Of a stretch of 64,000 nt of DNA, positions 5,404 through 59,444 are shown piece after piece. The notes below the pieces were generated by a model, which had not been told where the DNA came from, did no database searches, and worked only from the letters and a program-made list of their open reading frames with translations. Both the position numbers and the translations under genes were made by a program. Position 1 is the stretch's first letter. Every line of letters begins with the position of its first letter. Source of the DNA: Clostridia bacterium (GTDB lineage Bacteria > Bacillota > Clostridia > Oscillospirales > CAG-272); assembly GCA_017453305.1 (NCBI GenBank), contig JAFTKJ010000011.1, positions 3,729 to 67,728 on the forward strand, given 5' to 3'.

Positions 5404-5476
5404 GGCTTGAAAGTTCCTTTCAAAAGCAATCAATTTCTCATATTGAGATACGGACAGCTTCCCATCCGTTGCACCC

Positions 5477-5505
5477 ATTTTACCATATTCAAATACGCTT
5501 GTCAA
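5477..5505 (-). promoter_or_regulatory. Sigma-A promoter of GH31-A (TTGACA-17-TAAAAT with TGn extended -10)
   Basis: Minus strand reads TTGACAagcgtatttgaatatggTAAAAT. It lies about 67 nt upstream of ATG 5403. Confidence 0.6.
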
Positions 5506-5543
5506 TACAAATTATAAATTTGCAAGCAAAAAATTCCTTACAC

Positions 5544-5587
5544 AAAAAGAGGGGGTGAAGGAATACGAATCCGCATTTCCTTCACCC
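5544..5587 (-). terminator. Rho-independent terminator after GH31-B
   Basis: On the minus strand an 11-bp stem (GGGUGAAGGAA / UUCCUUCACCC) with a 13-nt loop is followed by CCUCUUUUU. Confidence 0.7.
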
Positions 5588-5601
5588 AATTAAGCTTGTG
5601 T

Positions 5602-8052: not shown

Positions 8053-8126
8053 ACCCTTTCCATCTTCTTTCGGAATTGAAATTTCTCGTAGTGAGATTGT
8101 GGTGGAACTATTCCACCTCCACGTAA

Positions 8127-8155
8127 ATTGTAGCATAAAGGAACAAAAAAGTCAA
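8127..8155 (-). promoter_or_regulatory. Sigma-A promoter of GH31-B (TTGACT-17-TACAAT, TGn)
   Basis: Minus strand reads TTGACTtttttgttcctttatgcTACAAT. The ~68-nt leader contains the hairpin GGTGGAAtagTTCCACC. Confidence 0.6.
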
Positions 8156-8163
8156 TACGTTAC

Positions 8164-8201
8164 AAAAAAACGGGTGCCCCAAATTTACATTTGAGACACC
8201 C
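8164..8201 (-). terminator. Probable weak terminator after GH31-C
   Basis: On the minus strand an imperfect stem (GGGUGUC ... GGCACCC) is followed by GUUUUUUU. Confidence 0.4.
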
Positions 8202-8229
8202 ATATTTCATATGGCGCTACAAGCTTTGA

Positions 8230-10710
8230 TTACTTGTAGTTTTTGATCTGATTCCAGTTCTGACCCTCAAAGATGGGCAGCAGTTCAGCCACATCCTTGG
8301 AATCGTTGTTGAGGTATACGGGGATCTGACCGAGATTTGCCTTTGCAACCACGGTCTTGCCGCCCTCGATAACCTCACCCGTAAGCAGATCGGTCCAAGA
8401 ACCTGCAGGCAGGTAGACCTCGCGCTCGAAGGTATCCTTGGTCAAAATAGGAGCTACCAGCAAGCCCTCGCCAAGCATGAACTCGTCGATGAGATCCTGT
8501 ACGTTGACGTCGTCCATGTACTGCAGGATCAGGTGACGTACGGGAGGCATACCCGTGTCGCACGCGATCTTGGAATATTTCTGCATATAGGGGATCAGCT
8601 CGGTGTGCAGACGAGTAAAGTTACGGTAGATCTGCTTAACGTCCTCGGTCATCTCATATGCGTGACGAACGTCGCCATGCGTTTGCATCTGCGTCAGGAA
8701 CGCAGTAAATTCGGTTGCGCGAGCAAAGATTGCAGACTCATTCTCCAAACCAATGGTAAAGTAGTTGTTGCCGCAGTATGCGTAGCCAGCCATGTCAAAG
8801 GACATGTAAGGAAGACCGGAAAGACCGGAGTTTACCGTAGCCAGGAGCTGGTCATCCAACTTTGCATAGTCGCGTGCCTGGTCACCGGACCACATGTAGG
8901 GATTACGCTGAGATCCGATACCGCCGCCGCGGGTGAATACCATAAAGCCGTCCTTGAGGCCCTTTGCAGCCTTCAATTCGACCATCTTCTTATAGAATTT
9001 CGAAATGAAGTAAGGTGCGTATGCATGATGCTCGGTGCCTGCAACGATGCGATCGGGATTCTTCCACTTGTAGTGGGTCTTGGTAGATCCGATCTGGCGG
9101 TCGCCGTCGGGCATGCACTCGCAGAAGTCGATCTTAACGCCATCAATACCAATGTCGATCATCTCGCCCCAGATCTTGTCAAAGTACCACTCGCAAGCCT
9201 CGTCGCTGGTGATATCCAAATAGTCACCTGTTCTCATCACGCCGCTTCTGCGTCCTACGTCGGGGTTGTCGCCCGTACCAAGGATCCACGGGATGGCGGT
9301 GGTATTTTCGTTCACGGTTACGGTTCCGTCCTCGTTGGTGATTTCAACGTCTGCATGAACCTTGTACTCGTCCTTAAAGCCGATATCCTGAGAATCAACG
9401 CCACCTACACGAATGTAGACCATTGCCTTCATGCCGTGTGCGTGGAGCCATGCGCAGCCCTTCTTGAGGTCTTCCTTGTTTGCGCGGCTCTCGTCGCTAT
9501 CACGGAAGCATCCTGCCCAACCTCTGCCCTCCATGCTGGCAGCCTCGGGCTTCATATCCTCATTGATAAAGTTGGTCATAATGGTCTTGGTAGAAAGTCC
9601 GCCGGGGTTGTTCTTAGGACCTCTCTTGAAATACTTGCCTGCGTCGTTCTTGACATACTGCAGCTCGTACTTGCCGTTCTCCTCGTTAAAGAGGAAGAAG
9701 CGGTTGACAACAGCCTTTGCCTTGTCGGAGATCGCAGGATACGGAACGTAGCTCTCACCGCCGCTGACCACTGCGGTCAGAGCATCGCCAACGTTCTTTT
9801 GTTCAATATCAATATACTTGCCGTCGGCAACCACGTAGAGCTTTTCCCAGTCGGGATAGTCCTCAACCTTATCGGTGCATCTGTCACCCTCAAAATGCCA
9901 GTGGTCGGGACCATAACGGCAGATGTGCATGCCCTGCATCCAAGGAGTGGGCATGTATGCGTGACCGGTCAACTCGGTGTAACCCTGCAGAACGTCTGCC
10001 ATGCTACCCGTAGGATAGAAGTAGCAGTCCATATCGCCATAGCGGAGAGTGTATGCCCAAGCGTCAGCCTCTTCCTTTCCAAAATCGACCCATGCGGACT
10101 CGTTGCGGTTGATATACATACCGCCGCCGCGCGTGGTGAGGAACACAGGAAGAACCACGTAAGTAGTTGCAGAGTTGTTCCAACCGTCGCAGGTGTAAAG
10201 GTCGAATGCCGTGCCTCTCTTGTTGGCTACGTCAAGACGCTCACCGCCGCCGTAGATTGCCTCTTTTTCAACGAGCGTACCCTTCATTACGAGTCTGCCC
10301 TTTTCGTTGTATGCAACGCTTGTCAGCTCACTGATTACCTTGCCGTTTGCTGCGCAGAACTTCAAGGAGAAATCCTTGCCCAAAGAAAGAACTGCACTGG
10401 TACCCTTCTTTTCGGTTACGGTGACAGTATCCTTATCAGCGTTGACTGTAATCTTTTGTGCGCAATCCTTAACTTCCTCGTTCATAAAGCGAGCAAGTGC
10501 CTGTGCTGCACCCAAATGATCGAATTTGCCATCTTTGCTTGTCTGCAATCTCCAACCGTTCACACCCTCAAAGGTCAAACGGAAGCAGATCCCTTCTGCA
10601 TTGCTGAACTGCAATGCCTTTGCGGATTGAAGAACGTCCTTCACCGCTGCGCATTTGCAAACCTTGATCTCTTCGGTTTTGCAAGCTCTTTTGCAGGTTG
10701 CTTTTTCCAT
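8230..10710 (-). CDS. Glycoside hydrolase family 31 paralogue C (cytoplasmic, ~826 aa)
   Basis: IDGVKIDFCEC and MWSGDQ motifs. Collinear with A and B. Start at MEKATCK (ATG 10710, AAAGGATGA 8 nt upstream); the ORF is open to 10737 but has no SD there. Confidence 0.85.
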   Translation of the reverse strand: MEKATCKRACKTEEIKVCKCAAVKDVLQSAKALQFSNAEGICFRLTFEGVNGWRLQTSKDGKFDHLGAAQALARFMNEEVKDCAQKITVNADKDTVTVTEKKGTSAVLSLGKDFSLKFCAANGKVISELTSVAYNEKGRLVMKGTLVEKEAIYGGGERLDVANKRGTAFDLYTCDGWNNSATTYVVLPVFLTTRGGGMYINRNESAWVDFGKEEADAWAYTLRYGDMDCYFYPTGSMADVLQGYTELTGHAYMPTPWMQGMHICRYGPDHWHFEGDRCTDKVEDYPDWEKLYVVADGKYIDIEQKNVGDALTAVVSGGESYVPYPAISDKAKAVVNRFFLFNEENGKYELQYVKNDAGKYFKRGPKNNPGGLSTKTIMTNFINEDMKPEAASMEGRGWAGCFRDSDESRANKEDLKKGCAWLHAHGMKAMVYIRVGGVDSQDIGFKDEYKVHADVEITNEDGTVTVNENTTAIPWILGTGDNPDVGRRSGVMRTGDYLDITSDEACEWYFDKIWGEMIDIGIDGVKIDFCECMPDGDRQIGSTKTHYKWKNPDRIVAGTEHHAYAPYFISKFYKKMVELKAAKGLKDGFMVFTRGGGIGSQRNPYMWSGDQARDYAKLDDQLLATVNSGLSGLPYMSFDMAGYAYCGNNYFTIGLENESAIFARATEFTAFLTQMQTHGDVRHAYEMTEDVKQIYRNFTRLHTELIPYMQKYSKIACDTGMPPVRHLILQYMDDVNVQDLIDEFMLGEGLLVAPILTKDTFEREVYLPAGSWTDLLTGEVIEGGKTVVAKANLGQIPVYLNNDSKDVAELLPIFEGQNWNQIKNYK

Positions 10711-10784
10711 AGCTAAGTCATCCTTTTTTAATAACATATTTCCCCATACGGAGGATCAATATAGGCGTTCTGCCTACTGACCAC

Positions 10785-10879: not shown

Positions 10880-10915
10880 ACAAAGAAAAGTGCCGCAGGA
10901 CAACGCCTGCGGCAC
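10880..10915 (-). terminator. Rho-independent terminator ending the 14-kb ABC/giant-protein operon
   Basis: On the minus strand a 10-bp GC-rich stem (GUGCCGCAGG / CCUGCGGCAC) with a 6-nt loop is followed by UUUUCUUUGUU. Confidence 0.75.
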
Positions 10916-10934
10916 TCGAGAGTATAAACTTGAA

Positions 10935-13130: not shown

Positions 13131-16100
13131 TCAGTTATTCTCGTACATAATGATGATGTAACCGCCGCTGGGCACAGTGTACAATACACCGTTGTAGGTT
13201 ACGCGAACTGCATAGCTGTTGTAGTTCAGAATGATGCTCTTATAAGGCGTCTTTGCAAAGGTGTCGGGATCGCGGTCACCGTAGGTAACAACTGCGATCT
13301 GGTTGTTGTTGACTGCACCAAAGCCGGATTCATCCTCAGAATCATCCTCTTCGTCACTGCCGCCAACCTGAACCTGTGCCAGGATCTGCTCCTTGGAGAA
13401 CAGCGTGCAAGCTGCCATAAGATCGGTATAAACCTGCTCGGAATATGCCTGACCTGCGTGCTTTCCGCCTTCTGCGAAGCTCGTCTTAAAGGCTTGGGTA
13501 ATCGACTTCATCGCCTCGTCCAAGAAGTAAGAAGAGCTTTCGGGATTCAGGAAATCGTAACCCTGTTCAGGATCGAAGTAATAAGAACTCTCGCTTTGAA
13601 TACGGGCAACGTACTTCATAGCCTCCGTATGAGCTGCTTCCATCTGAGCCACCAGCTTTGCTCTGGTCTCTTCATCGTTGTTGTAGACTTCAGTGGTCTT
13701 CACCAGCTCGATTGCTGCTACCATAGCTGCAACGGTCTCATCTGCCTGCTGCTGCAGGTATCTGATATCCTCGGAGAGCTGAGCCAGCTTTGCAGACTTT
13801 GCGCGGAGAGAAGACAGCTGGAGAGATACCATGTCGATGGAGTCCTTATACATTGCATCGGAACCGAACACTTCGGGATCAATAAGCGCAAAGTCGGTAA
13901 CAACTTGGTCGATAGCAGATCCAAAGCTTACCTGCTCGGAAAATGCCATGTAGTTGGTATCCACAGCAGAGTTTGCTTCCTGAAGCTGGGTCAAGAAGTT
14001 CTTCATCGTTTCTTCTGCATGGTAGAGCAAGCTCCATGCGTTTGCAACGGAGATAACGTCCTCGGTTTCGGAATCCTGCTGGAGCTGATCCTCATCCTTG
14101 ATTGCGTTCTCCAAGCGATCGGCAATATCTGCCTCCAGCTCGTCAAGGTCGAGTACACGCTCGCCTACCAGGAATTCGTGATCGATGATCAGCTTATCCT
14201 GTACGTCGTGCAATACGTTGTTCAGCTCATTGTAGTACTTAGCAACGTCCTCAAGCCAAATATCATAACGGATGGAGTAGTACTGACTGAGGTAAAAATC
14301 CTCCTTCAACTCCGTGGTGTTCTGATAAGAGAGAATGAAGTAGATGCTGGAACCGTTTTCGATTGCTCTCAGGAGAGCGTAGTTTGCGTTACCCTCTTCG
14401 TTCAAAGGAGTGCCTGCAAACTGAACGTAGCCGTGCAGAACTGCGCCGATGAAAGGAACGGTTGCGCTTGCCTCCAGATAGCGGCTGGAGTCAAGGTCTA
14501 CGTTAAGAATGTGATCTACATACTTCCAGGTATAAGCGTTTCCACCCTCAACCATCAGGCTGTAGCCTGCATTCTTGATGTCCTCAAGTGCCTCGGTAGT
14601 GTACTCCTTGCTCTCCTCGCGGTTGTACATATCCTCTTCATCGAAGTCGGAGTTCAATGCATTACCGAGAGTTGCAACAGACATCGAGTTTACACCGTAT
14701 TCCTTGTAGTTTTCAAGGAGCTTAGTATAGAACTTACTGAAGCGAGAAGGCGAAATTGCCAACTGATAGAAGGATACGAAGGTCTGCTGGGTTGCGCTAT
14801 ACGAACGGAAGGAGGTATAGCGGTTGTCGATGGTCTTAACTGCGTCATCGCGCAATACAAAATCATCAAACAAATCGTTTACTTCGGAGTAAGCGAAGTT
14901 AAAGTCGGGATACAATCCCAGGTGAGAGCCGTCTGCCAGCCCGTTGATGCGATTTGCCTCAGCAGCAAGAGCATGGAAGCCCTCCTTGCCGCCTACCTTC
15001 TTTTCCCACTTCAGGGCAGAAGGCATGGTAGCGTACATACCGCCGTTTGCAAAACCGGTCATCTTAAAGTTGATGTTCTTAACGTCATAATCGCCCAACT
15101 CGTTGTACATCGTCAACAGATTTTCAAACGTCGTCAGGGGAGTCATGACCCATACGGGAATGGTTGCAATGCTTTCCTGCGTTTCAAGGGCACCGAATAC
15201 CTCGATGTAAAGCGGAATATCGTCCTTGATTCTTTCTTTCAGTGCAGTATTGGAAAGAACACCCGTGGTGCACAGATAATCGCGATACGCCTCTGCCATA
15301 CCCAGCCAGGAAGCGGAGTAATGCTTGTGCGTATGCTCGCCCTCTGCTGCGTTCTCAAGGTTTGCGTCATCGCAAAGCAGGACGTAGCGGAGCGTAAAGC
15401 TGCCCGTGTACTTTCTATCCGACTGGATATTTACGTTTTTGCTCGAGCTTGCAGAGATCGCGTCGGACAAATCGTAGCTATCGTGAGGCTTCGGATTGAA
15501 GTAGGGGTATACAGTGCTGTAGTTGTGCAATGCACCGCCGTGATACAGCTGGAATCTGGTAAAGGAATCTGCTTCCTCAACCATTGCCACGTATGCACGC
15601 TTAGAAACGGTCAGAGTATCTGCGATATTTCCGGAAAGGAGGGTTGCACCCATCGTTTCCAGCTCCTCCTCGATCTGCTCAAGGGTCTTGACCGAGTTGG
15701 ACATGCGAACCGTGATCGGTTCGGATTGCTCACCGGTCTCGGGATCGGGAGCAGTGTAGGTGTACTCATAGAAGATCTCGCTGCTCACTGCACCGTAAAC
15801 GGGATAGCGAACAACCTTTTGGAACTTGAGTCCCAGCAATTGGTGATAAGCGAAGTCCTCACCGTAAACATAGCCCAAAAGCTTTTCGGTGGAGGTGCCC
15901 AGCTGTGCGTGATCAAACAACGCACCGGAGCCATCCGGGAAGAAGGTGTAGCTTGTGGAAACATCCTCTACCAGGTTTCCGTTATCATCCAGATAGGAGT
16001 AGTTGAAGCCTGCGTTTTTGTAGTTACTTGCTCCCATGTAAGGAAGGATAGACAGGTTCTCCAGGGTGTAGGAGGACATATCGTAACGCAGACCGTTACA

Positions 16101-17051
16101 AGGCAGACGAACGGAAAGACCGTTTTCGTCCATGTAGTACTCCAATGCCATCTTGAACACGGGGTACTTTTCGTCCTCTGCTTCATAACCAACGGCTTCG
16201 TGGTCAAGGTCCAGCTGCTCAAAGGTGTACTCGGGGCAGTACATCTTGATCCACTCTTCACGCTTGATCATGTCACTCATACTGATCATGTTGCTCAGAT
16301 ACTGATAAATGACAGGATACACGGTTTTGCCGTTCTCATCGATGTAGAACTCACCCAAAATAGGGTACTTCTTGGTAAACTCGATTCTCTGGAGCATACT
16401 CATATTGTTGGGGTCGATCTTCTGCCATGCATTGATGAACCAATCGTAGTCGAATTGCTCCAATTCGCCGCGCTCAACAACTTCTCTGATTTTAGAAAGG
16501 ATGTTAGGCTCGAAGCTATCTTCCAAAATCAATCTCGGAATCAGCTTTCTGCCGTCCTCACGACCGATGGTGTACTCAACGCGCACACCGCCCTTGATCA
16601 ATTGAACCTTGAGCTGGTCGTTCAGTGCTGCATCCTTGTAGCTGTACAGATTCTTGGAGGTACCGGTGTTATCCTTGTACGCTACAATGATCTGAGACAG
16701 CAGCTCTTGCTTGGTGGATTCACTACCCTTGGACGCAGCAACGTCATAAGGGTTGGAGAACAGGATATTTTCAGTGGGATTGCCCTCTGCATCAGTCTCC
16801 ACGTAAGCAACTTCACCGCTCTTAACGTCTACCCACAGCTGGAAGTTACCAAAGGTACGCATCGGCTGCATGGTAGCAAGCTTTTCCTGCGGGTTGTTGT
16901 AAACTTGAGTAACGTATTTTTCAATCGGAACGCTCACGGTCTCCGTGGTGGTTTCATCTGCCGAGACCTGCACCGTTAACAGTGCCGTGAACATGCCAAG
17001 CACCATTGTGACAGCTAAGAGTGTCGAAAGTATGCGTTTTGTTAATTTCAT
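13131..17051 (-). CDS. Exported 1306-aa protein of unknown function (signal peptide, large mixed alpha/beta core, ~270-aa helical region, acidic linker, small beta-rich C-terminal domain)
   Basis: N-terminus MKLTKRILSTLLAVTMVLGMFTALLTVQVSA/DE. AGGAGG lies 7 nt upstream. No LPXTG motif, lipobox, SLH or dockerin is seen. It may correspond to what some annotations call a DUF5696-type protein; this is from memory and unverified. Confidence 0.8.
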   Translation of the reverse strand: MKLTKRILSTLLAVTMVLGMFTALLTVQVSADETTTETVSVPIEKYVTQVYNNPQEKLATMQPMRTFGNFQLWVDVKSGEVAYVETDAEGNPTENILFSNPYDVAASKGSESTKQELLSQIIVAYKDNTGTSKNLYSYKDAALNDQLKVQLIKGGVRVEYTIGREDGRKLIPRLILEDSFEPNILSKIREVVERGELEQFDYDWFINAWQKIDPNNMSMLQRIEFTKKYPILGEFYIDENGKTVYPVIYQYLSNMISMSDMIKREEWIKMYCPEYTFEQLDLDHEAVGYEAEDEKYPVFKMALEYYMDENGLSVRLPCNGLRYDMSSYTLENLSILPYMGASNYKNAGFNYSYLDDNGNLVEDVSTSYTFFPDGSGALFDHAQLGTSTEKLLGYVYGEDFAYHQLLGLKFQKVVRYPVYGAVSSEIFYEYTYTAPDPETGEQSEPITVRMSNSVKTLEQIEEELETMGATLLSGNIADTLTVSKRAYVAMVEEADSFTRFQLYHGGALHNYSTVYPYFNPKPHDSYDLSDAISASSSKNVNIQSDRKYTGSFTLRYVLLCDDANLENAAEGEHTHKHYSASWLGMAEAYRDYLCTTGVLSNTALKERIKDDIPLYIEVFGALETQESIATIPVWVMTPLTTFENLLTMYNELGDYDVKNINFKMTGFANGGMYATMPSALKWEKKVGGKEGFHALAAEANRINGLADGSHLGLYPDFNFAYSEVNDLFDDFVLRDDAVKTIDNRYTSFRSYSATQQTFVSFYQLAISPSRFSKFYTKLLENYKEYGVNSMSVATLGNALNSDFDEEDMYNREESKEYTTEALEDIKNAGYSLMVEGGNAYTWKYVDHILNVDLDSSRYLEASATVPFIGAVLHGYVQFAGTPLNEEGNANYALLRAIENGSSIYFILSYQNTTELKEDFYLSQYYSIRYDIWLEDVAKYYNELNNVLHDVQDKLIIDHEFLVGERVLDLDELEADIADRLENAIKDEDQLQQDSETEDVISVANAWSLLYHAEETMKNFLTQLQEANSAVDTNYMAFSEQVSFGSAIDQVVTDFALIDPEVFGSDAMYKDSIDMVSLQLSSLRAKSAKLAQLSEDIRYLQQQADETVAAMVAAIELVKTTEVYNNDEETRAKLVAQMEAAHTEAMKYVARIQSESSYYFDPEQGYDFLNPESSSYFLDEAMKSITQAFKTSFAEGGKHAGQAYSEQVYTDLMAACTLFSKEQILAQVQVGGSDEEDDSEDESGFGAVNNNQIAVVTYGDRDPDTFAKTPYKSIILNYNSYAVRVTYNGVLYTVPSGGYIIIMYENN

Positions 17052-17072: not shown

Positions 17073-19217
17073 TTATACACGGTACTGGATTTCTGTAATA
17101 ATGTTGGAAACAAGGCCGACCAGCTTTGCAAGCAACATACTGAACAGAAGCACCAGGAACACGATAAACGCCATTGCAACGATGGTACCAATAATGGTGA
17201 TCAGGTTCTTGAACAGCGAGTAATCGTGCGTGATCATCGTACCGAAGAACAGCAACAATGCAACCCAGATGAACGCGATGGTTGTGACCATCTCAACGAT
17301 TGCAACCTCGGTGGTGCTGACCCAGTTGGATCCCAGCGTTGCGGGGATAACCAAAAGAATCAGAGGCATCAACGAATACGACGATGCAATAAAGATGTCC
17401 TTAAAGCTACCTTCACCCTCCATCAAGGTGGTCAAGCACCAGTTTGCAAGGACGAAGAGGAACAGGGGAACCAATACGGAAATTGCCTGTGCCCAAATGG
17501 TGGTGGTGTTACCGGTAGGATTCATAACGTAACCCTGACCGATGCCCTGGTAGAAGAATGCAACTACCGTCAATGCAATGAATACCAAGGATGCGCGAAC
17601 GGATCCGCGGTGCTCATGCTTTAAGTCGTAGAAGCCGTCAAACGGATGGAAGATCACGTAGAAGCCGTAAAGAAGCTCATGGCCAAACGCTTTTCTTTCC
17701 TTACCGTCGGTAGCAACACGCTTGTTGACCTTTGCAGCCCAACCCAGGAACTTGATGATAGCAACGATCAAAACGATGATGATCGCTACGATAGGCAGGA
17801 ACCATACCGACATCCACTCCTTACGTACCATCTTGTACGCCTCGGACCAGTTTTCGGTATCGTATGCACTTTCATAATACTCCAATGCTTCGCCATAGTC
17901 TGCGCTACGGTACATCGCGTTACCGATACCAACGTATGCGGCGTCGAAGTTAGAGTTTCTCTGCAGAACCTTCTTCCAGCACTCGATTGCGAAATCGTAG
18001 TCCAGGGAGTTCTCTGCTGCGATTGCCTGAACCAGCAGATCGCCGTACTCGGTACGGTCATAAATAATAATACTGTTGGAGCCTGCATCCAGGATGATCA
18101 TCTTGTTGCCCTGATATGCAATTGCACCTACGTTTGCGATACTACCCAACATGGTACCGGTATCACCAAACGCAAACAAAAGGTTACCGTTAAAGTCGTA
18201 GGTGTAGATCTTCTCACGCTTGGTATCCACAATGGACCAAGTCTTTTCGGGACCTGCTGCTACGTCAACGACGGTGGAAACACCGCTGATCTCGGAGCCG
18301 GTAAAGCCGAAGATATCGATTTCACCTGCCGGAGGCCAGAAGCCGTTACGTCTCATAATTTCGTCACCCGAGGGGTTAAGCAACTTAACGGGCATATACT
18401 TACCGTCCTTGGACTTACCTCTGATTGCACCGGATACCGAACCTTCCTCGATACCTGCGGTGGTTACGTAGATAAATCCGTCGTCGGTAATTGCGATGTT
18501 GTTGTAGACAACGGAGGTCTTACCATAGGTCAGCTTTCTCTGTGCCTCAGTCTGGAAGTTTCTCCAAAGAATCTCCCATGCGGAAATGGTAACTGCCTGT
18601 GCACCGATGAATCCTACAAATTCACCCTCAGAGTTCATAACGATGATACCCTGGTTGGTGGAGGAGGATACAACATAGATTCTGCCGTACTGGTCAATTG
18701 CCATTGCCACGGGCTTGTATGCCGCGTTTGCATCGAACAACTGGCTTTCGGGAGCGTCCAGAATCTGCTTGAATTCACGAGTCTTTTTATCAAACTCGAT
18801 CAAACGGCTGTTACCGGTGTCACACACCCAGATGGAGGTATCGGTAACGAATACTCCCTCGGGAAGGGAGAACTTATCGTTGTTACCTGCGCTGTTCTGG
18901 AAGGTGGTGATGCATGCTTGATACTCGAAGTAACGGTTGAGGATCAGGATCTGGTTGTTACCGCTGTCGGCAATATAGATGTTGCCTTCCTTATCGGTAA
19001 TCAGGTCCTTAGGATCCTTCATATCCTGCGGCAAACCCATTTCTACGTACGTCAGCGCTTCCTCGGGAGAATACGCATCGGGAGAATAGAGGGCGGAGCC
19101 GTCGATGGAGTAGGTATAGGTCTGATAAGCGGAAGATGCGGCAGTGCCGATCGTCATCATCGGAATGAGCATTGCGAGAGACAATATCAGCAATAAAACG
19201 GATGTAATTTTCTTCAT
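17073..19217 (-). CDS. Exported NHL-repeat beta-propeller + TPR-like segment fused to a C-terminal multi-pass Yip1-like membrane domain (714 aa)
   Basis: Signal peptide MKKITSVLLLILSLAMLIPMMTIGTAASSA. NHL-like blades (GNIYIADSGNNQILILN, IWVCDTGNSRLIEF, RIYVVSSSTNQGIIVMN, NKMIILDAGSNSIIIYD). TPR-like region AIECWKKVLQRNSNFDAAYVGIGNAMYRSADYGEALEYYESAY. About 6 TM helices from aa 471. AAGGAGGG lies upstream. Confidence 0.8.
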   Translation of the reverse strand: MKKITSVLLLILSLAMLIPMMTIGTAASSAYQTYTYSIDGSALYSPDAYSPEEALTYVEMGLPQDMKDPKDLITDKEGNIYIADSGNNQILILNRYFEYQACITTFQNSAGNNDKFSLPEGVFVTDTSIWVCDTGNSRLIEFDKKTREFKQILDAPESQLFDANAAYKPVAMAIDQYGRIYVVSSSTNQGIIVMNSEGEFVGFIGAQAVTISAWEILWRNFQTEAQRKLTYGKTSVVYNNIAITDDGFIYVTTAGIEEGSVSGAIRGKSKDGKYMPVKLLNPSGDEIMRRNGFWPPAGEIDIFGFTGSEISGVSTVVDVAAGPEKTWSIVDTKREKIYTYDFNGNLLFAFGDTGTMLGSIANVGAIAYQGNKMIILDAGSNSIIIYDRTEYGDLLVQAIAAENSLDYDFAIECWKKVLQRNSNFDAAYVGIGNAMYRSADYGEALEYYESAYDTENWSEAYKMVRKEWMSVWFLPIVAIIIVLIVAIIKFLGWAAKVNKRVATDGKERKAFGHELLYGFYVIFHPFDGFYDLKHEHRGSVRASLVFIALTVVAFFYQGIGQGYVMNPTGNTTTIWAQAISVLVPLFLFVLANWCLTTLMEGEGSFKDIFIASSYSLMPLILLVIPATLGSNWVSTTEVAIVEMVTTIAFIWVALLLFFGTMITHDYSLFKNLITIIGTIVAMAFIVFLVLLFSMLLAKLVGLVSNIITEIQYRV

Positions 19218-20101: not shown

Positions 20102-21049
20102 TTAAGTACCTACCTTTGAGAGAGCTTTCTTAACGATCGTGTTCGCAACGATCATGATCGTAAAGAGTATAACGGCAATGGTGGAAGAATAACCGATCTC
20201 GTAACGGGCTCCGCCGTAGTCGTCCAAATGGTGCGTAATGGTATGTGCTGCGTAGTCAACCGAAGGGAATCCGCAAAGTGCGGTAACGACACCACCAAAA
20301 CCAAAGGAATTGGTGATTGCCATGACTGCACCGAACATCAGCTGCGGCTTCATGCTCGGAAGAGTGATATACCAAAGCTCCTGCCAACGGTTCTTGACAC
20401 CGTCAACGGCACCTGCCTCGTACAGGGAGCGGTCTACGCCCTGCAAACCTGCGATAAAGGACAGGAAGGAGTGACCCAAGGAGGTCCAGAGTGCAACCAC
20501 AATACACAAAGGCATGATGTAATCGGCATCCTTAAACCACTGGATCGGCTCGGTGATCATACCCGTTTCGATCAGAGTTGCGTTAACCCAACCGTAGGAG
20601 TCACCGGAGAACAGCGTACCCCAGATCATATACACCTGACCGGAAATGGAAGGTGCATAGAAGATCAAGGTTACAACCGCACGGATGCGGGGAGGCAGCT
20701 CGTTGATGAACCAAGCTACCAGGAAGGACATCAAGTAGGAAGCAGGTCCTACGATGGCCGCAAAGATCAAGGTGTTCTTGCAGGCGATGAGGAAGATATC
20801 GTCTGCAAAGAACAGGTTGACGTAGTTCGTAAGCCAAACGAAGTTCGGCCATTGCAACATGTTAAAGTCGGTAAAGCTGATGATGAAGGACAGGATGACC
20901 GGGAAAATGGTAAAGAGTGCGAAAATCAGCACGTAAGGAAGGATCATCAGGTATGCAACCCAATTTCGTCTCATTTCTCTCCGCACGTATTGACCATAGG
21001 TCATGTCTTTTCTGGCAACCGCTTTATATTCTGTCTTTTCTTTTGACAT
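20102..21049 (-). CDS. Carbohydrate ABC transporter permease (MalF-like, ~315 aa)
   Basis: EAGAVDGVKNRWQELWYITLPSM EAA loop. Start chosen at MSKEKTEYK (ATG 21049) behind AAGGAGAAAG. The ORF is open to a TTG at 21091 that overlaps the SBP stop. Confidence 0.85.
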   Translation of the reverse strand: MSKEKTEYKAVARKDMTYGQYVRREMRRNWVAYLMILPYVLIFALFTIFPVILSFIISFTDFNMLQWPNFVWLTNYVNLFFADDIFLIACKNTLIFAAIVGPASYLMSFLVAWFINELPPRIRAVVTLIFYAPSISGQVYMIWGTLFSGDSYGWVNATLIETGMITEPIQWFKDADYIMPLCIVVALWTSLGHSFLSFIAGLQGVDRSLYEAGAVDGVKNRWQELWYITLPSMKPQLMFGAVMAITNSFGFGGVVTALCGFPSVDYAAHTITHHLDDYGGARYEIGYSSTIAVILFTIMIVANTIVKKALSKVGT

Positions 21050-21087
21050 TTGCTCTTTCTCCTTACATTTGTATTTTAGAAGAGGTC

Positions 21088-24000
21088 TCAATAAGAAGCG
21101 AGTGCCTCAGCAGTGTCGCGCAGCGCCTCTGCGATGAAGTAGATCAGCTCAAGCTCGGACAGATCTTTAATTGCGTATCCGCCGACGTCATAGCCGTCCT
21201 TCTTCTCGGGCTCAAGAGTCTGCTTGGTTACGTTATTATAATAGGAAGGAACCGTTTCGAGATCGCCGTTCACCTTCATGATCTCCTTTGTGCTCTTATC
21301 CCATTTTGCTGCCAAGAGCTCGTCAAAGAGGATTGCTGCTTCTTCCAAACGAACGATATTACCGTTGACAATACCGTACATTGCCTTATCGATTGCTGCC
21401 TGATACTGCGCAACGTCGGAAGTAGTTTCCTTCAATGCGTCAATCGCAGTTCTGATCTGGTCGGATCTCTTTTCGGAAAGCTTCTGACCAAGCTCCAGAG
21501 TTTCAAGTCCAAACTCCTTACGCTTACGGGTGATCTCGGTGTTGATGGTGTTGATGTAGCTCAACAGCTCGGTGGTCGGATCTGCGCCGTCATTGTATGC
21601 GGAGAGGAATGCGAAGTTGGTGTGACGTCCAATGAAGTAGAATCCGGGGTAGTTTTCAATTGCGGAAAGGTTCTCAAACTGCTTGGAAACCTCGATGTAC
21701 TCATCGTAGGTCCAAGGCATACTTGCAAGTGCCTCGCGGTTTGCGGTGGAGTGCTTTGCGGAGTCACCGATGATAGCAACCATTTCGTTCGCGTATGCGA
21801 TCTGTGCCTCTGCGCCGGTGTACCAGCACATGTAATCCCAAGCGTCCTTGGTGTTGGTGGTACCGGAGATCATAACGACTGCCGCAGTAGCTGCCATGGT
21901 CTGGTTATCGATCTTGCCGGTCTCCTCGTTCAGCGTTCCGGGAACGGGAACGAACGTCCAACAGCCGTCCAACTCGGTTGCAAATACCTTCAATTGGTTA
22001 TAAAGGCCGGTGTAACCAGCAAGGATGATGGGCATTTCACCGGTTCTGAAACGGTTTGCCGCATCGTACTGATAGGGGAAGGAATACTGCGTGAACATGT
22101 CACACATCTTGTTAAACGCTGCCAAGCCGTACTCGGAGTCGAGGTTGATTCTCATACCCTCGTCAGCCCAGATGCTACCGCCCATCTGATAGAGGAAGGG
22201 CATGTAGTCGGTGGTAACACCGATTTCCATGTTGTTGGACTGAAGCTTGGACTGTGCTACGTACAGGTCATCCCAGGTGCGAGGAATTTCAATGCCAAGA
22301 TCCTGCAGAACGTCCAGACGAACAAACATCATAGAGAAGCTCTGCGTTTCGGGCAGACCGTAGTAGTGCATGATATTATCTGCGTCCGCGATACGAAGAA
22401 CCGTCAGCGCAGCTTCATTAAAGTTGGAAATAACGTCCTCGAAGTTATCGGGGTCAATATCCTCAACCTGGAGCAATGCTCCACGAATTGCATAGTTGAT
22501 AACCGTGTCGTCGCCCAGACCGTGGTATACGTCAGGTCCCATGCCTGCCAGGATAGAAGGCAGGAGCGTACCGCCGGTAACCAGCTTCAGGTCTACGGAC
22601 TTGCCATACTGCTGAGTAAAGCTGTTGGTTGCAAGGTTACGAATAACGTTTGCCTGGTCACGACCGTAAGGAACCCATACGGTGATCGCTTCAACATTCT
22701 CACCAAGCTCCTCGGTAGCACCCATGCTGTTGTAGTCACGGAAGAAACTCCAGAAGAAGCCTCTGATCTCGTGCCAGAATGCCTGGAAGAAGTTTGCGGA
22801 AGCCTTGGGAGCCTCAACCTCTGCAGGCTGGATCACAAGGTAGTCAAGCTGCAACGGCTGGGTCTTTGCGTCGCTCAGGAAGGTACCCAAGGAACCAACG
22901 TAGCTCTTGAAGGTATCCAGGTTCTTTGCGATGGGGTCACCGCCCTTGATAACCATTCTGCCAAGCAAATCTACCAATTTATCACATACGCCCGTGTAGG
23001 TGGATGCAACGCCCGCACCCTCGCGCAGGAATTGAGAAATCGCAGTCAAGGAGTCGATCTCTGCAAACATGCTGTCCAGAGTCTCGGGAAGCATACTATA
23101 GAATTTGTAATCACGGTAGTCGTCGGGGGTAGTACCGGTCAACTGAATGATATCCAGATAGTCCTGGTTGAGCGCATTCAGAATACGCTCGATCTCGCGG
23201 ACGGTATCACTCATCGTACCAAAGGTAACCTTAAGATTGATGGTGTAAATAACACCCTTTTGGAAGTAAAGCTGATAGCTTTCATCCGAAAGATTACCGG
23301 TAGAGGACAGCTTGGTAACCTGCCAGTCGGTACCGTAGTCGTAGCGAAGACCTGCAGCCTCGGAGAAGGGCAAGCCGTTGTAGTAGCCCGCTGCGGTGTT
23401 CTGAGCCGCAACGTAAGCCTCTTCGCTCTCGTAGTTGGTAGTAATCGTCAGTGCGCGGCTGACGTACATACCGTCAAGGTAACTCTGCTTAAAGCGCGCA
23501 TAAATGTCATACCAACCGGAATCGTCAACGGAGAAGGAGTACTCAACCCACTGACCTGCAGTTGCCCACTTTTCGGTACCAATGGTGTTCAGGATCATTC
23601 TCTTGGGATCCACGGGAGAGGTCAGTGCAGATGCACGGTCCTCAATCGGGTAAATAACGTTGGTGGAGGTTTTGTTGGTGTTCTCTGCCTCGATCTTGAT
23701 CACGCTGGTGCCGTTCTTGGTGCCAACCAACTTCTCAAGAGCCTTACGGTAATCTGCATAGGAATAGGTGGACTCGTAAGGAAGAAGCGTCAGCGTGGAA
23801 AGAGCCATAGGCTCGTTGACGCTGTCAAGAGCGATCTTAACAAGACCGTTTTCATCGGGAGTCAGCACAAAGCCGAAGTGCTCACTGTCGTAAGTTCCAA
23901 CTTTTTCGCCCTCTGCGTTCACAGCCTCGTAATAGTGCGTATAACCGTCGCTATCACTGATGATGTAATTTCTCCACTCGGGAGTCTGCAGCTGAGTGGG

Positions 24001-24993
24001 ACGAATCTCGTTGTTGTTGATATCGGTTGCGAGGAAGCGCAGACCGTATTTTGCAACAAACGCGCTGTTTTTGGCAGTGGAATACTCAGGCTGAACAAAG
24101 GTGATGGACTTTTGGTCCTGCGCTACCGTGTAGGTAACGTTTGCCTTGAAGCCTGCATCCTCAGCCTCGGCAACGATCGCGTTCAGATCATCTCTGCCGC
24201 CAAGGGTGTAGGTTGCAACCAGAGCCTTCAGGTTTGCATCCGTATCACCGGTGGTGCTTCCCTGCTGATAAGAACCCCAGATTTTGGAGAACAGCAGTGC
24301 ATGCGCCTCGGAGAAAACGGGCTTACCATTAATGTAAAGCTCACGCTCGATCGCAGAAGATCTTGCCACAACGGGGAAATAATCCAAGCCGATGCGGTAA
24401 AGCGTAGCGGCAGTAATGCCCTCTGCCTTCAGATCAACCGTCCAGGTCACCTTGCCGCGGCCGGGAGTATAGATCGCTTTCACGCCCTGGTACTCATCGG
24501 TAACGTATGCAAGGTCGGACGCCTTGTACTTTGCCTTGCCATTATCGTCCTTCGCTGCAAGCGCGTCCTCCAGGGAAGCATAGGTCTCTGCAATTGCACA
24601 CAGACGACCATCCTCCACCGTGTACAGCTCACTTGCTGCGTAGCCCGCCGCGGTAGCCTCGGCAACAGTCTCAAAATAATCCTTGGAGAGAACGGTCATC
24701 TTCCATACACCGTCTGTCATGGTGATGATGACGTTGTCACACTCGTAAACCCAGTTATCGGTCAAGAGAGCCGTAATCTCCTTGGTTGCCTGTGCCGCGT
24801 TGGCAAAATACATTGCCTGATACTCGGCATAGGAAACCATGTTCAGGGTTTCCTTGTAGTGCTCAATGGATTTGTCCGTAAGGTTGTCGTTTACTACCGT
24901 AGCACCGACAGCCGTTACAGCGCTGCTCACAAGACACATGAGTGCCAAAGCCAAACAAAGGAGTCTTGTGAAAGTCTTGTTTCTCATTTGCAT
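21088..24993 (-). CDS. Giant (~1301 aa) extracellular solute-binding protein: N-terminal beta-sandwich/CBM-like modules + helical linker + family-1 SBP domain + helical C-terminal tail
   Basis: Start MQMRNKTFTRLLCLALALMCLVSSAVTAVGA (ATG 24993, with GGAGGA immediately upstream). CBM-like module VIKIEAENTN...WVEYSFSVDDSGWYDIYARF at nt 23218..23703. SBP-like module ITVWVPYGRDQ... at nt 21529..22692. Confidence 0.85.
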   Translation of the reverse strand: MQMRNKTFTRLLCLALALMCLVSSAVTAVGATVVNDNLTDKSIEHYKETLNMVSYAEYQAMYFANAAQATKEITALLTDNWVYECDNVIITMTDGVWKMTVLSKDYFETVAEATAAGYAASELYTVEDGRLCAIAETYASLEDALAAKDDNGKAKYKASDLAYVTDEYQGVKAIYTPGRGKVTWTVDLKAEGITAATLYRIGLDYFPVVARSSAIERELYINGKPVFSEAHALLFSKIWGSYQQGSTTGDTDANLKALVATYTLGGRDDLNAIVAEAEDAGFKANVTYTVAQDQKSITFVQPEYSTAKNSAFVAKYGLRFLATDINNNEIRPTQLQTPEWRNYIISDSDGYTHYYEAVNAEGEKVGTYDSEHFGFVLTPDENGLVKIALDSVNEPMALSTLTLLPYESTYSYADYRKALEKLVGTKNGTSVIKIEAENTNKTSTNVIYPIEDRASALTSPVDPKRMILNTIGTEKWATAGQWVEYSFSVDDSGWYDIYARFKQSYLDGMYVSRALTITTNYESEEAYVAAQNTAAGYYNGLPFSEAAGLRYDYGTDWQVTKLSSTGNLSDESYQLYFQKGVIYTINLKVTFGTMSDTVREIERILNALNQDYLDIIQLTGTTPDDYRDYKFYSMLPETLDSMFAEIDSLTAISQFLREGAGVASTYTGVCDKLVDLLGRMVIKGGDPIAKNLDTFKSYVGSLGTFLSDAKTQPLQLDYLVIQPAEVEAPKASANFFQAFWHEIRGFFWSFFRDYNSMGATEELGENVEAITVWVPYGRDQANVIRNLATNSFTQQYGKSVDLKLVTGGTLLPSILAGMGPDVYHGLGDDTVINYAIRGALLQVEDIDPDNFEDVISNFNEAALTVLRIADADNIMHYYGLPETQSFSMMFVRLDVLQDLGIEIPRTWDDLYVAQSKLQSNNMEIGVTTDYMPFLYQMGGSIWADEGMRINLDSEYGLAAFNKMCDMFTQYSFPYQYDAANRFRTGEMPIILAGYTGLYNQLKVFATELDGCWTFVPVPGTLNEETGKIDNQTMAATAAVVMISGTTNTKDAWDYMCWYTGAEAQIAYANEMVAIIGDSAKHSTANREALASMPWTYDEYIEVSKQFENLSAIENYPGFYFIGRHTNFAFLSAYNDGADPTTELLSYINTINTEITRKRKEFGLETLELGQKLSEKRSDQIRTAIDALKETTSDVAQYQAAIDKAMYGIVNGNIVRLEEAAILFDELLAAKWDKSTKEIMKVNGDLETVPSYYNNVTKQTLEPEKKDGYDVGGYAIKDLSELELIYFIAEALRDTAEALASY

Positions 24994-25063
24994 TTCCTCC
25001 TGCAAGTAATTAACACTCCGCCCGTTTGTTTTCGTTTGCGCCGCAAGGGGAGAACGTAGGCTT

Positions 25064-25194: not shown

Positions 25195-25223
25195 ATTGTA
25201 CCATAAAACCGCCTTTCTGTCAA
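25195..25223 (-). promoter_or_regulatory. Sigma-A promoter of the 14-kb operon (TTGACA-17-TACAAT, TGn)
   Basis: Minus strand reads TTGACAgaaaggcggttttatggTACAAT. This implies a leader of about 195 nt. Confidence 0.6.
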
Positions 25224-31637: not shown

Positions 31638-31666
31638 TTGACTTTCCTTTTTGGGTGTGCTATGAT
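31638..31666 (+). promoter_or_regulatory. Sigma-A promoter for araC-nagB (TTGACT-17-TATGAT, TGn)
   Basis: TTGACTttcctttttgggtgtgcTATGAT. It lies about 40 nt upstream of ATG 31706. Confidence 0.5.
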
Positions 31667-31705
31667 TATATTATAGCATATCCAAACACAAATAGATATG
31701 CAGAA

Positions 31706-38320: not shown

Positions 38321-38335
38321 AAGGAGAGATAGATA

Positions 38336-59416: not shown

Positions 59417-59444
59417 CTCAAAGAAAAAACTTATCGTAAACGGC

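Follow-up and report, generated by a model that had tools for sequence, protein, structure and literature searches.

The propeller-TPR-Yip1 protein encoded at 17073..19217 (-), for which we coin the label NTY, is probably (at an estimated probability of roughly 0.55) an integral accessory subunit dedicated to a conserved glycan-uptake machine of Gram-positive bacteria. Two modules would make up this machine, together with an ATPase normally encoded elsewhere: module A would contain a giant solute-binding protein (SBP) and permeases P1 and P2, while module B would contain NTY, a large secreted and putatively GH129-like DUF5696 protein, and permeases P3 and P4. Positions refer to the window, the whole 64,000-nt stretch of Clostridia DNA that was analysed. 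The data show the architecture of NTY, its strict linkage to DUF5696-P3-P4, and the interchange of fused and split forms, and they support the predicted outside/inside topology. Gene linkage speaks for a shared function and not for a kind of contact, and a glycan-binding or signalling ectodomain also fits it.

Architecture and predicted topology of NTY

ORF calling and translation gave NTY as a 714-aa ORF with an ATG start and a GGAGG ribosome-binding site 8 nt 5' of it. The domain order is a signal peptide, a six-bladed NHL propeller, two TPR repeats, one transmembrane (TM) helix, a K/R-rich cytosolic loop, and a five-TM Yip1 domain. The signal peptide (19137..19217 (-), residues 1-27), recognized by hydropathy and sequence reading, consists of MKK, a hydrophobic core, and TAA/SS, and the sequence reading found no lipobox Cys in it.

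The NHL beta-propeller (18054..19073 (-), residues 49-388), predicted to be extracellular, was recovered by AF2, Foldseek, Pfam, and PDB matches. NHL (PF01436) scored 36.5 bits against a cut-off of 20, which identifies NHL repeats, and a Reg_prop match in Pfam was weak. PDB sequence searches matched the propeller to those of PknD and the “Pizza” NHL proteins at E 1e-8 to 1e-12, and Foldseek matched it to solved six-bladed NHL domains (TRIM71, Thin, Brat, and Pizza6) at E ~1e-14 with target-normalised TM-scores of 0.73-0.80. The two TPR repeats that follow (17862..18050 (-), residues 390-452) form four helices, with the propeller on one side and the membrane on the other. TPR_2 scored 24.7 bits in Pfam, slightly below the cut-off of 27; residues 405-455 matched consensus TPR proteins at E 1.6e-20 in the PDB sequence search, and we counted the region as TPR.

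Hydropathy gave six TM segments in total. TM1 (17745..17801 (-), residues 473-491), placed by hydropathy and split variants, runs out-to-in. The cytosolic loop after it (17595..17744 (-), residues 492-541) has 9 K/R and carries HPFDGF(W/Y)DLKHExRG, the motif of the family. The remaining five segments, at 542-697 and in agreement with the AF2 helices, belong to the Yip1 bundle (17076..17594 (-), residues 542-714; Pfam, hydropathy, and conservation), inside which lies cytosolic loop 2 (NWCLTTLMEGEGSFKD, residues 592-607). Yip1 (PF04893) matched residues 520-689 at E 2.6e-14 over model positions 2-172 of 173, with 53.9 bits against a cut-off of 28.6, so that the family cut-off was passed over the whole model. 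Yip1 domains have five TM helices and a cytosolic domain N-terminus, and hydropathy and AF2 predict the same for NTY. The AF2 model, of moderate confidence (pLDDT 69, pTM 0.54), contained a beta-propeller (49-388) and the TPR helices (390-452), as well as one long TM helix and a bundle of helices, and the mutual placement of its domains is not to be read from it.

The signal peptide, the positive-inside rule, the known cytosolic N-terminus of Yip1, and natural split variants together predict that the propeller and TPR repeats lie outside the cell and that the Yip1 part lies in the membrane; the TM segments themselves were assigned by hydropathy. The propeller had been placed outside in the original prediction as well, and the topology check bore this out. 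The nucleotide ranges given there for propeller and Yip1 (residues ~30-395 and ~505-714) were correct, and the ORF, Pfam, AF2, Foldseek, and the ribosome-binding site all confirmed the gene and its architecture as real.

Gene order and distribution of the NTY cassette

Window cassette. NTY sits inside a tightly packed seven-gene unit with the order SBP-P1-P2-NTY-DUF5696-P3-P4, 10 nt past the P2 gene and 21 nt ahead of the DUF5696 gene. Translation, Pfam, and PDB searches defined the giant SBP (21088..24993 (-), ~1300 aa from the ATG at 24993) as a ~750-aa N-terminal extension without any Pfam match, an SBP_bac_1 domain in the C-terminal half (1.7e-16 in Pfam, PDB match 5ci5), and a ~130-aa helical tail; its signal peptide had no canonical lipobox. 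P1 (20102..21091 (-), with the true start probably at the ATG at 21049) is UgpA-like, P2 (19228..20100 (-)) is UgpE/MalG-like, P3 (12133..13113 (-)) is UgpA/MalF-like, and P4 (10935..12116 (-)) is UgpE/MalG-like with an ~85-aa extracytoplasmic insert. Pfam found BPD_transp_1 in all four permease genes, their top NCBIfam matches were UgpA/UgpE/MalG, and all four keep the EAA coupling motif. With MalFG/UgpAE-type permeases that have EAA motifs and an extracellular family-1 SBP, the unit has the makeup of a type I ABC carbohydrate (CUT1-like) importer operon. The DUF5696 protein (13131..17051 (-)) is a secreted protein of 1306 aa (Pfam DUF5696 E 2.7e-118).

A promoter-like site (TTGACA-17-TACAAT with a TG extension, 25195..25223 (-)) precedes the SBP gene, and a terminator-like hairpin with a T-run (10888..10917 (-), 12 bp, 8 GC pairs) stands directly 3' of P4. 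Both are consensus matches only, and the hairpin likely marks the end of the seven-gene unit. Beyond it are three tandem GH31 genes (2989..10737 (-); Pfam and NCBIfam) with their own promoter-like site at 10813-10785. This trio is a variable flank outside the conserved cassette and is present in only some related loci.

ATPase. We found no MalK/MsmX-type ATPase gene within the window. Bacillota importers usually share an ATPase encoded elsewhere. The sole ABC ATPase of the window (26674-27390, upstream of the cassette) adjoins a SufBD-core gene and is SufC-like by inference. We rejected it as the importer ATPase because it has this partner, is conserved far more strongly than the cassette, adjoins it in about one quarter of close loci, and is missing from distant ones. 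Among all fetched loci, a UgpC/MalK-type ATPase was found only in Paenibacillus, at the head of the cassette.

Family size and gene order. NTY homologues numbered more than 3000 at E<1e-5, with the best 120 all 694-725 aa long, and the NTY-type cassette occurred in at least 598 species genomes. Among the best 150 Yip1-domain representatives, every protein of 650-800 aa (98/98) had a homologous propeller and TPR. The original prediction had described NTY as chimeric, a misleading term for an architecture that is normal across a large family, and we rejected the reading of NTY as a unique chimera since that architecture is constant. The order SBP-P1-P2-NTY-DUF5696-P3-P4 was identical in 84 species-representative loci of gut Clostridia wherever the contig allowed, and the order (NHL-TPR + Yip1)-DUF5696-permease-permease was found in all 160 loci with enough DNA from two collection scans. 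With these 160 loci and two cultured species, co-occurrence with ABC and large-protein genes, on which the original prediction was to be checked, is essentially absolute.

Split and fused forms. In other lineages NTY is split within the cytosolic loop into two adjacent genes. The upstream propeller-TPR protein has a TM helix (equivalent to TM1) and a K/R tail at its end; the Yip1 gene, which adjoins or overlaps the upstream gene, encodes a protein that begins in the loop. That the split falls exactly in the cytosolic loop supports the predicted topology and a joint function of both halves. In a distant set of 80 metagenome loci (Yip1 identity 33-43%), a propeller-TPR gene was always directly 5' of Yip1 (34 fused, 39 split, 0 without), and DUF5696-P3-P4 always lay 3' of Yip1. 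We considered whether stand-alone Yip1 genes signal a dispensable propeller and rejected this, as a separate propeller-TPR-TM gene lies directly upstream wherever the DNA suffices. Both forms occur in cultured species. The cassette of Butyrivibrio fibrisolvens D1, at WAA20_RS20510-20545, is of the split form and is accompanied by two extra SBPs; that of Paenibacillus cellulosilyticus KACC 14175, at HUB94_RS00490-00525, is of the fused form and is headed by a UgpC-type ATPase gene.

The SBP-P1-P2 genes were less constant, lying downstream in five loci and absent within the flanks in four; one locus (L119) had an ordinary 461-aa SBP instead of the giant SBP. The giant SBP and P1-P2 are thus a second module that is movable or missing, and NTY is tied to DUF5696-P3-P4. 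The CAZymes flanking the cassettes varied (GH31, GH78, GH43). Metatranscriptome contigs from the bovine gut, at 90-99% identity, covered the cassette and crossed its gene junctions, and these RNA-derived contigs point to expression of the cassette. Literature searches combining Yip1 domain, NHL, and bacteria, or NHL repeat, YIP1, and solute-binding, returned unrelated papers only.

The DUF5696 partner and candidate roles of NTY

DUF5696. The DUF5696 gene is always directly 3' of NTY. Its product has beta-sandwiches at the N-terminus, a beta/alpha region resembling a barrel, a helical insert that is specific to the lineage, and a beta motif at the C-terminus that is conserved. In the AF2 model the N-terminal beta-sandwich is confident, and eight beta/alpha units with low confidence come after it. 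Foldseek matched it to the GH129 structures 5opq/8rzk at E 1e-11 and to 5wzn at 9e-6, each with probability 1.0, at TM-scores that were low (0.2-0.3) and with low pLDDT in the barrel region. The predicted fold therefore appears GH129-like, with a low-confidence TIM-like barrel. Pfam and PDB sequence searches found no sequence-level similarity to GH129, and a search of the PDB with the core, as a single sequence and as a profile, found no match; the tail gave only coiled-coil noise. Conservation of D802 and E898 (numbering of the window protein) reaches at least 88% across 74 DUF5696 sequences. Going by the model, DUF5696 may be a candidate new glycoside hydrolase family; a literature search for DUF5696 / PF18952 found no paper. 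Compared with the GH129 enzymes ZgGH129 (5opq/8rzk) and NagBb (5wzn), DUF5696 shares the fold match of a beta-sandwich followed by beta/alpha units, but it lacks sequence similarity, is extracellular, and reaches ~2000 aa.

Tethering by helical tails. The original prediction proposed that NTY tethers two anchor-less giant proteins, the giant SBP and the 1306-aa DUF5696 protein, to the permeases through their helical tails. The proposal was partly supported, in that its topology and co-occurrence held up. Consistent with it, most of these proteins in this lineage have signal peptides that lack a lipobox (60/74 SBPs and 76/78 DUF5696 proteins), the sampled C-termini had no TM segment, and NHL and TPR are classical protein-binding modules. 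Docking through the tails did not fare as well. The SBP helical tail and the DUF5696 helical insert are lineage-specific and highly variable in length, with DUF5696 measuring between 955 and 2063 aa in close relatives; relatives of 757-950 aa lack the insert. Tail and insert are both absent in Butyrivibrio, Paenibacillus, and digester relatives that retain the propeller-Yip1 protein, which weakens the tethering proposal and leaves the tails unsupported as docking sites. Tethering of both giants is weakened further because NTY is tied to DUF5696-P3-P4 and is kept where the giant SBP is absent (L119), as the SBP and P1-P2 move or disappear. NTY is also kept in about seven loci where DUF5696 is a clear lipoprotein and in Paenibacillus, where an N-terminal segment, read by eye, resembles an uncleaved TM anchor. 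Docking is superfluous for surface retention in relatives whose DUF5696 has a lipid or probable N-terminal TM anchor, so a tether is not needed there. We consider it very unlikely that tethering by the tails is the purpose of NTY.

With the P1+P2 background removed, mirror-tree correlations of the propeller were 0.53 with the DUF5696 N-domain, 0.52 with P3, and 0.51 with P4, versus 0.24 with the SBP domain and 0.05 with the SBP tail, the last also speaking against the tether; these correlations are weak, come from non-independent data points without a significance test, and are supporting colour rather than proof.

Conservation. Across the 98 representatives, the most conserved segment of NTY was cytosolic loop 2 (mean 0.74), and the conserved cytosolic segments comprised loop 2 (NWCLTTLMDGEGSFKD), the HPFDGFWDLKHE motif, and THDYS. 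Because the best-conserved segment is a cytosolic Yip1 loop, the Yip1 part appears to be more than an anchor, which again weakens simple tethering. The same pattern would suit a transmembrane sensor or regulator, in which the ectodomain senses substrate or a loaded GH/SBP and the Yip1 loops signal to the ATPase or to a regulator, such as one of the two-component systems that are often encoded nearby, to gate transport or expression. An NHL ectodomain on a single TM also resembles the layout of the PknD sensor kinase, and HK/RR or LacI genes adjoin some cassettes, but nearby regulators vary in type and are often absent, NTY has no recognisable output domain, and its tight operon position amid structural genes of the transporter points to a structural subunit, produced in amounts that match the others. 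A sensory role is unlikely.

Nearly all conserved residues of the propeller in the same 98 representatives were G, P, or the single Asp of each blade, which is the structural signature of NHL repeats, and no conserved His/Glu/Asn metal-site or catalytic cluster was present. This bears on whether the propeller, like other six-bladed NHL/SGL propellers, is itself an enzyme (for example a lyase, lactonase, or esterase) that acts on surface glycan. Faint SGL (PF08450) matches in some homologues and a Foldseek match to virginiamycin B lyase (E ~1e-9) point that way, but the best structural matches were non-enzymatic NHL domains and, lacking the cluster, we rejected a catalytic propeller as highly improbable.

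Substrate binding. The window and Paenibacillus cassettes have two permease pairs but one SBP, which raises the question of whether NTY is a membrane-tethered substrate receptor. Its NHL propeller, with or without the TPR, would bind glycan or sugars released by DUF5696 and present them to P3-P4, so that NTY would act as a surface glycan-binding protein or stand in for the missing second SBP. The propeller is the part of NTY farthest from the membrane in the AF2 model, beta-propellers are ligand-binding sensors elsewhere, and the weak Reg_prop match and the similarity to the PknD sensor propeller fit such a role. Against it, loci in which module B stands alone have ordinary SBP genes after P4 (L119, and the two extra SBPs of Butyrivibrio), which suggests that P3-P4 work with normal SBPs. 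Judged by tblastn identity, the divergence of NTY is close to that of P3 and P4 and slower than that of the SBP and DUF5696, despite the varying CAZymes, and no carbohydrate-binding module signature was found. A receptor role is rather unlikely. A bolder version makes the cassette a new class of ABC importer with an obligatory Yip1 subunit, in which the propeller-TPR replaces a soluble SBP for P3-P4 and takes sugars directly from the docked GH129-like enzyme, giving a hydrolase-coupled importer without its own SBP; we regard this as speculative and rather improbable.

Accessory subunit. The reading that we prefer, NTY as an accessory subunit of module B, would work as follows. The five-helix Yip1 bundle would pack sideways on the TM domains of P3-P4, by analogy with YknW and YknYZ, and its conserved cytosolic loops may be turned toward the coupling region of the permeases or toward the ATPase. 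The TPR near the membrane and the NHL propeller beyond it would form a protein-docking platform, on which the conserved DUF5696 core, and perhaps the SBP too, would be kept above the translocator. In this way, sugars set free at the cell surface would be captured for import instead of being lost.

Comparison with known systems

Almost no function has been assigned to bacterial Yip1 proteins; the one studied so far, YknW, serves an ABC exporter as an accessory protein. Papers citing Yamada et al. 2012 describe YknW of the Bacillus subtilis YknWXYZ system as a Yip1-family protein, neither permease nor ATPase, that associates with the YknXYZ ABC transporter and modulates its assembly (PMC4887032, PMC4338810), and Yip1 proteins recur with ABC genes in bacteriocin clusters (PMC10707071). 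NTY is likewise a polytopic PF04893 protein inside an ABC operon. The two differ in that YknW is a bare ~230-aa Yip1 protein with a MacB-type exporter and a membrane-fusion protein as partners, whereas the Yip1 part of NTY bears or pairs with a 450-aa extracellular NHL-TPR part and its partners are MalFG/UgpAE-type importer permeases without MFP/FtsX. No MacB/FtsX-type permease, dedicated ATPase, or HlyD-type membrane-fusion protein was found in the cassette or related loci examined. NTY is not a member of the YknWXYZ-type exporters, and it may act in a YknW-like way.

Eukaryotic Yip1/YIPF proteins of ER-Golgi traffic, which act by binding other membrane proteins (PMC6682643, PMC5898192), share with NTY the Pfam family, the five TM helices, and the cytosolic domain N-terminus. 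Bacteria lack Rab/Ypt GTPases, Yif1-type partners, and vesicle traffic, however, and the N-terminal region in NTY is a short loop with the HPFDGFWDLKHE motif. PknD of Mycobacterium tuberculosis (PDB 1rwi, match E 2e-8) has in common with NTY an outside six-bladed NHL propeller on a single TM, but where PknD has a Ser/Thr kinase domain for signalling, NTY has a Yip1 bundle and lacks any catalytic output domain.

At least ~600 species genomes of Bacillota from gut and digester, cultured Butyrivibrio and Paenibacillus included, carry a sugar-import cassette of which Yip1 together with a propeller-TPR is a constant component; the cassette is always accompanied by the glycosidase-like DUF5696. A bacterial function for the Yip1 fold can be put to the test with NTY, and the cultured hosts and natural split and fused forms make the model directly testable. 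We know of no type I importer with a Yip1-type extra subunit. If the subunit model is true, type I importers can carry an extra integral subunit linking a surface enzyme to the translocator.

In the SusE/F and SGBP systems of Bacteroidota and in Gram-positive ABC-based PULs, a non-catalytic surface protein is encoded between surface glycosidase and transporter genes, and the flanking CAZymes vary, an arrangement that the NTY locus resembles. NTY has no sequence or fold relation to SusE/F or SGBPs; it is integral to the membrane, its cytosolic face is conserved, and its partner is an ABC importer rather than a TonB-dependent SusC. Under the subunit model, the cassette would give Gram-positive bacteria an equivalent of the coupling of enzyme, binder, and transporter known from the Sus systems of Bacteroidota.

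Architecture, topology, and family of NTY

NTY, the protein under study, was encoded by a minus-strand ORF at 17073–19217 (714 aa) with a GGAGG ribosome-binding site 8 nt upstream of its ATG, and the original prediction had placed both of its ends accurately. By the tests available it is a genuine member of the Yip1, NHL, and TPR families. Pfam matched Yip1 (PF04893) at residues 520–689 over almost the whole model (53.9 bits vs a cut-off of 28.6) and NHL repeats (36.5 bits vs 20), with TPR_2 slightly below its cut-off (24.7 bits). Sequence searches of the PDB matched the TPR region to consensus TPR proteins (E = 1e-20) and the propeller to NHL propellers (1e-8 to 1e-12), among them the sensor domain of PknD and the ‘Pizza’ designs derived from it. 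A role as a sensor or regulator, as in this PknD domain, is nevertheless unlikely for NTY. The AF2 model, built with 22 homologues as input, had moderate confidence (pLDDT 69, pTM 0.54) and contained a propeller (49–388), four TPR helices (390–452), and then a long transmembrane (TM) helix and a helical bundle. Solved six-bladed NHL domains were its Foldseek matches (E ~1e-14, target TM-score 0.73–0.80).

Hydropathy and charge identified a signal peptide without a lipobox (1–27), the first TM segment (TM1, 473–491), a loop carrying nine K/R residues (492–541), and five more TM segments after it. This arrangement puts the propeller and TPR outside the cell and the Yip1 bundle in the membrane, bearing out the topology originally proposed. 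Among 98 fused representatives, conservation in NTY peaked in cytosolic loop 2 of Yip1 (consensus NWCLTTLMDGEGSFKD, mean 0.74), and the motifs HPFDGFWDLKHE and THDYS are cytosolic too. Conserved propeller residues in the same representatives were mostly G, P, and one Asp per blade, the structural NHL signature, with no catalytic cluster among them; that the propeller is an enzyme is scarcely credible.

A homology search returned >3000 NTY homologues at E < 1e-5, the best 120 of which were all 694–725 aa with an identical Pfam set; those of the 120 that were named carried the label ‘YIP1 family protein [Clostridia bacterium]’. The Yip1 part alone gave 1611 matches (210 below 1e-30) among 1.84 billion cluster representatives. 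Within the best 150, a homologous propeller and TPR were present in 98/98 proteins of 650–800 aa, and ~12 true stand-alone Yip1 proteins (200–226 aa) started at HPFDGFWDLKHE. A large family with such constant architecture rules out a one-off chimera, so the earlier description of NTY as chimeric is misleading.

Cassette organization and distribution

NTY was one of seven minus-strand genes packed with gaps of ≤21 nt. These encoded a giant solute-binding protein (SBP) of ~1300 aa with an SBP_bac_1 domain in its C-terminal half (21088–24993), permeases P1 and P2 between SBP and NTY, the 1306-aa DUF5696 protein next after NTY (13131–17051), and permeases P3 and P4 after DUF5696. A promoter-like site (25223–25195) and a terminator-like hairpin directly 3' of P4 (10917–10888) were consensus matches only and no proof of function. 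The EAA coupling motif was kept in 4/4 permeases, suggesting two importer transmembrane pairs, both complete. Bovine gut metatranscriptome contigs of 90–99% identity covered the cassette and crossed its gene junctions; these RNA-derived contigs from in vivo samples are assemblies from related strains, with DNA carry-over possible.

No MalK/MsmX-type ATPase was encoded in the window. Its sole ABC ATPase adjoins a SufBD-core gene and was therefore read as SufC-like. This pair (25757–27390, minus strand) was directly upstream of the cassette in the window, occupied that position in ~21/84 of the closest loci, was absent from distant loci, and had conservation far above that of the cassette; the arrangement appears to reflect synteny within the lineage and not a functional association. 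Three GH31 genes 3' of the cassette (2989–10737, minus strand) had a separate promoter-like site, again a consensus match only. These tandem paralogues (835, 844, and 838 aa) had alpha-xylosidase and alpha-glucosidase as best NCBIfam matches, below equivalog cut-offs. A response regulator and histidine kinase were at 973–2738. Long stop-free antisense ORFs mirrored the cassette genes on both strands across 2989–25143, such as a 1380-aa ORF opposite the SBP gene (20917–25059, plus strand). Codons TTA, CTA, and TCA, which read on the opposite strand as the three stop codons, were almost entirely avoided (27/7172; 0 in the 1302-codon SBP gene), and we therefore rejected these ORFs as shadows of codon avoidance.

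Elsewhere in the window, a 550-aa ORF (31655–33307, plus strand) joined an AraC ligand-binding domain and HTH with a glucosamine-6-phosphate isomerase/6-phosphogluconolactonase-type domain, an unusual regulator-enzyme fusion. Other fusions combined a VanZ-like membrane domain with a calcineurin-like phosphoesterase (33627–35090, minus strand) and HTH_3 with a PfkB sugar kinase (36531–37775, plus strand). ORFs of 417 aa (37910–39163, minus strand) and 728 aa (59301–61487, plus strand) had no Pfam match at E ≤ 1e-5; the latter overlaps an opposite-strand 532-aa ORF, and either strand may code.

When one genome per species was scanned, at least 598 genomes had a relative. The best 80 all belonged to uncultured gut bacteria classed as Clostridia, Oscillospiraceae, or Eubacteriales, with ruminants, horse, rabbit, and humans as hosts. 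The order SBP-P1-P2-NTY-DUF5696-P3-P4 was identical, as far as contigs reached, in these 80 and in four loci fetched through homologues, and three more loci fetched in this way had the same annotated order. Flanks varied, with GH31 in some loci and rhamnosidase or unrelated genes in others. Conservation by tblastn identity ranked P2 > P1 > NTY ~ P3 ~ P4 > SBP ~ DUF5696, indicating that NTY diverges at the pace of machinery and more slowly than the proteins likely to contact substrate. That NTY is itself a tethered glycan receptor is conceivable but doubtful.

Scanning metagenome contigs with an alignment of stand-alone Yip1 proteins yielded 80 distant loci (33–43% identity to the window’s Yip1 domain), whose sources were digesters, bioreactors, and guts. 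This allowed the survey of fused versus separate Yip1 and NHL that had been suggested: in loci with enough upstream DNA, the propeller-TPR coding region immediately 5' of Yip1 was fused in 34, split in 39, and missing in 0. The upstream protein of the split form had a signal peptide, propeller, TPR, one C-terminal TM helix, and a short K/R-rich tail, and its stop codon was abutted or overlapped by the Yip1 gene, which started shortly before HPFDGFWDLKHE. The break thus falls exactly in the loop assigned to the cytosol, which independently supports the topology, and the interchangeable fused and split forms indicate that both halves act jointly (the Rosetta-stone argument). DUF5696-P3-P4 always followed Yip1 in the distant loci. 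This linkage is obligatory in the loci examined, in keeping with the co-occurrence with ABC and large-protein genes expected of NTY from the outset. SBP-P1-P2 was downstream of P4 in five distant loci and absent within the flanks in four, and one locus (L119) had an ordinary 461-aa SBP after P4 in place of the giant SBP block. The cassette therefore consists of two modules, with NTY in the DUF5696-P3-P4 module. A crude mirror-tree of 83 loci (P1+P2 background removed) weakly agrees: the correlation of propeller distances was highest for the DUF5696 N-domain (0.53), P3 (0.52), and P4 (0.51) and lowest for the SBP domain (0.24) and tail (0.05), values that carry no significance test. In another locus (L159), two adjoining ~435-aa proteins without a Pfam match (5683–8361), which may be divergent SBPs, lay between a LacI regulator and NTY-DUF5696-P3-P4, the place of binding proteins in other loci.

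Two cultured organisms carried the cassette. Butyrivibrio fibrisolvens D1 had the split form on megaplasmid pNP243, annotated as ‘NHL repeat-containing protein’, ‘YIP1 family protein’, and ‘DUF5696 domain-containing protein’; genes close by encoded a histidine kinase/response regulator pair, a GH43, and two additional SBPs. In Paenibacillus cellulosilyticus KACC 14175 the two halves were fused, and a UgpC-type ATPase gene immediately preceded that of the giant SBP.

The large secreted partners

Sequence searches of the PDB gave no match to the DUF5696 core, and we found no paper on DUF5696 or PF18952. In an AF2 model of residues 36–1010 (pLDDT 65.5), the N-terminal beta-sandwiches were well predicted and were followed by eight low-confidence beta/alpha units and a long helix. 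Foldseek matched the model to GH129 (ZgGH129, E = 1e-11; NagBb, 9e-6; both probability 1.0) and weakly to GH31 enzymes, with low TM-scores (0.2–0.3), so the GH129 likeness is a family-level fold assignment rather than a detailed model. At least 88% of 74 diverse sequences, distant homologues included, shared the acidic residues D802 and E898 of the barrel region. Judging from the model, DUF5696 may represent a new family of extracellular glycoside hydrolases.

A helical/coiled-coil insert (~13300–14200, minus strand, in the window; also in loci L005–L084) separated the DUF5696 barrel from a conserved C-terminal beta motif. It was hypervariable (protein length 955–2063 aa in close relatives) and missing from the 757–950-aa proteins of distant lineages, Butyrivibrio, and Paenibacillus, where the motif comes straight after the barrel; it could be a stalk or spacer. 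The SBP had an N-terminal extension of ~750 aa without a Pfam match. Residues ~270–750 were conserved even in Butyrivibrio and Paenibacillus, and the first ~270 and last ~130 were lineage-specific. Unusually for SBPs of Gram-positive bacteria, most relatives had no lipobox.

In the window’s lineage, signal peptides without a lipobox were found in 60/74 SBP and 76/78 DUF5696 proteins, and sampled C-termini of both had no TM segment, which fits their initial description as anchor-less. NTY had been proposed to tether them through their helical tails. The SBP tail, like the DUF5696 insert, was missing in Butyrivibrio and Paenibacillus, while NTY was kept, which makes such a tether very unlikely; any docking has to rely on their conserved cores instead. 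About seven distant DUF5696 proteins were clear lipoproteins, and Paenibacillus DUF5696 and SBP had N-terminal segments that resembled TM anchors, as judged by eye only. NTY was kept in all of these lineages, so holding loose proteins is not its only or universal job.

Proposed role of NTY and known systems

The best-supported reading, to which we assign a probability of roughly 0.55, is that NTY serves the DUF5696-P3-P4 importer as an integral accessory subunit. Annotation of single cassette genes is routine, yet neither the system nor what NTY does in it has been characterised: we found no description in the literature of the cassette itself or of a Yip1-type or propeller-bearing accessory subunit of a type I ABC importer. 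The cassette matters because it is widespread in gut Bacillota and testable in cultured hosts.

The closest model is YknW, a Yip1 protein that, according to two reports, modulates assembly of the YknXYZ ABC transporter (PMC4887032, PMC4338810). By this analogy, the Yip1 bundle of NTY would pack against the transmembrane domains of the permeases, with the conserved cytosolic face of the bundle touching the coupling region or the ATPase. The TPR and propeller might dock the conserved glycosidase-like core, and perhaps SBP too, above the translocator. YknWXYZ-type systems have a MacB-type permease and a membrane-fusion protein, whereas the NTY cassette has neither, which places NTY outside that type of system, even if it may work like YknW.
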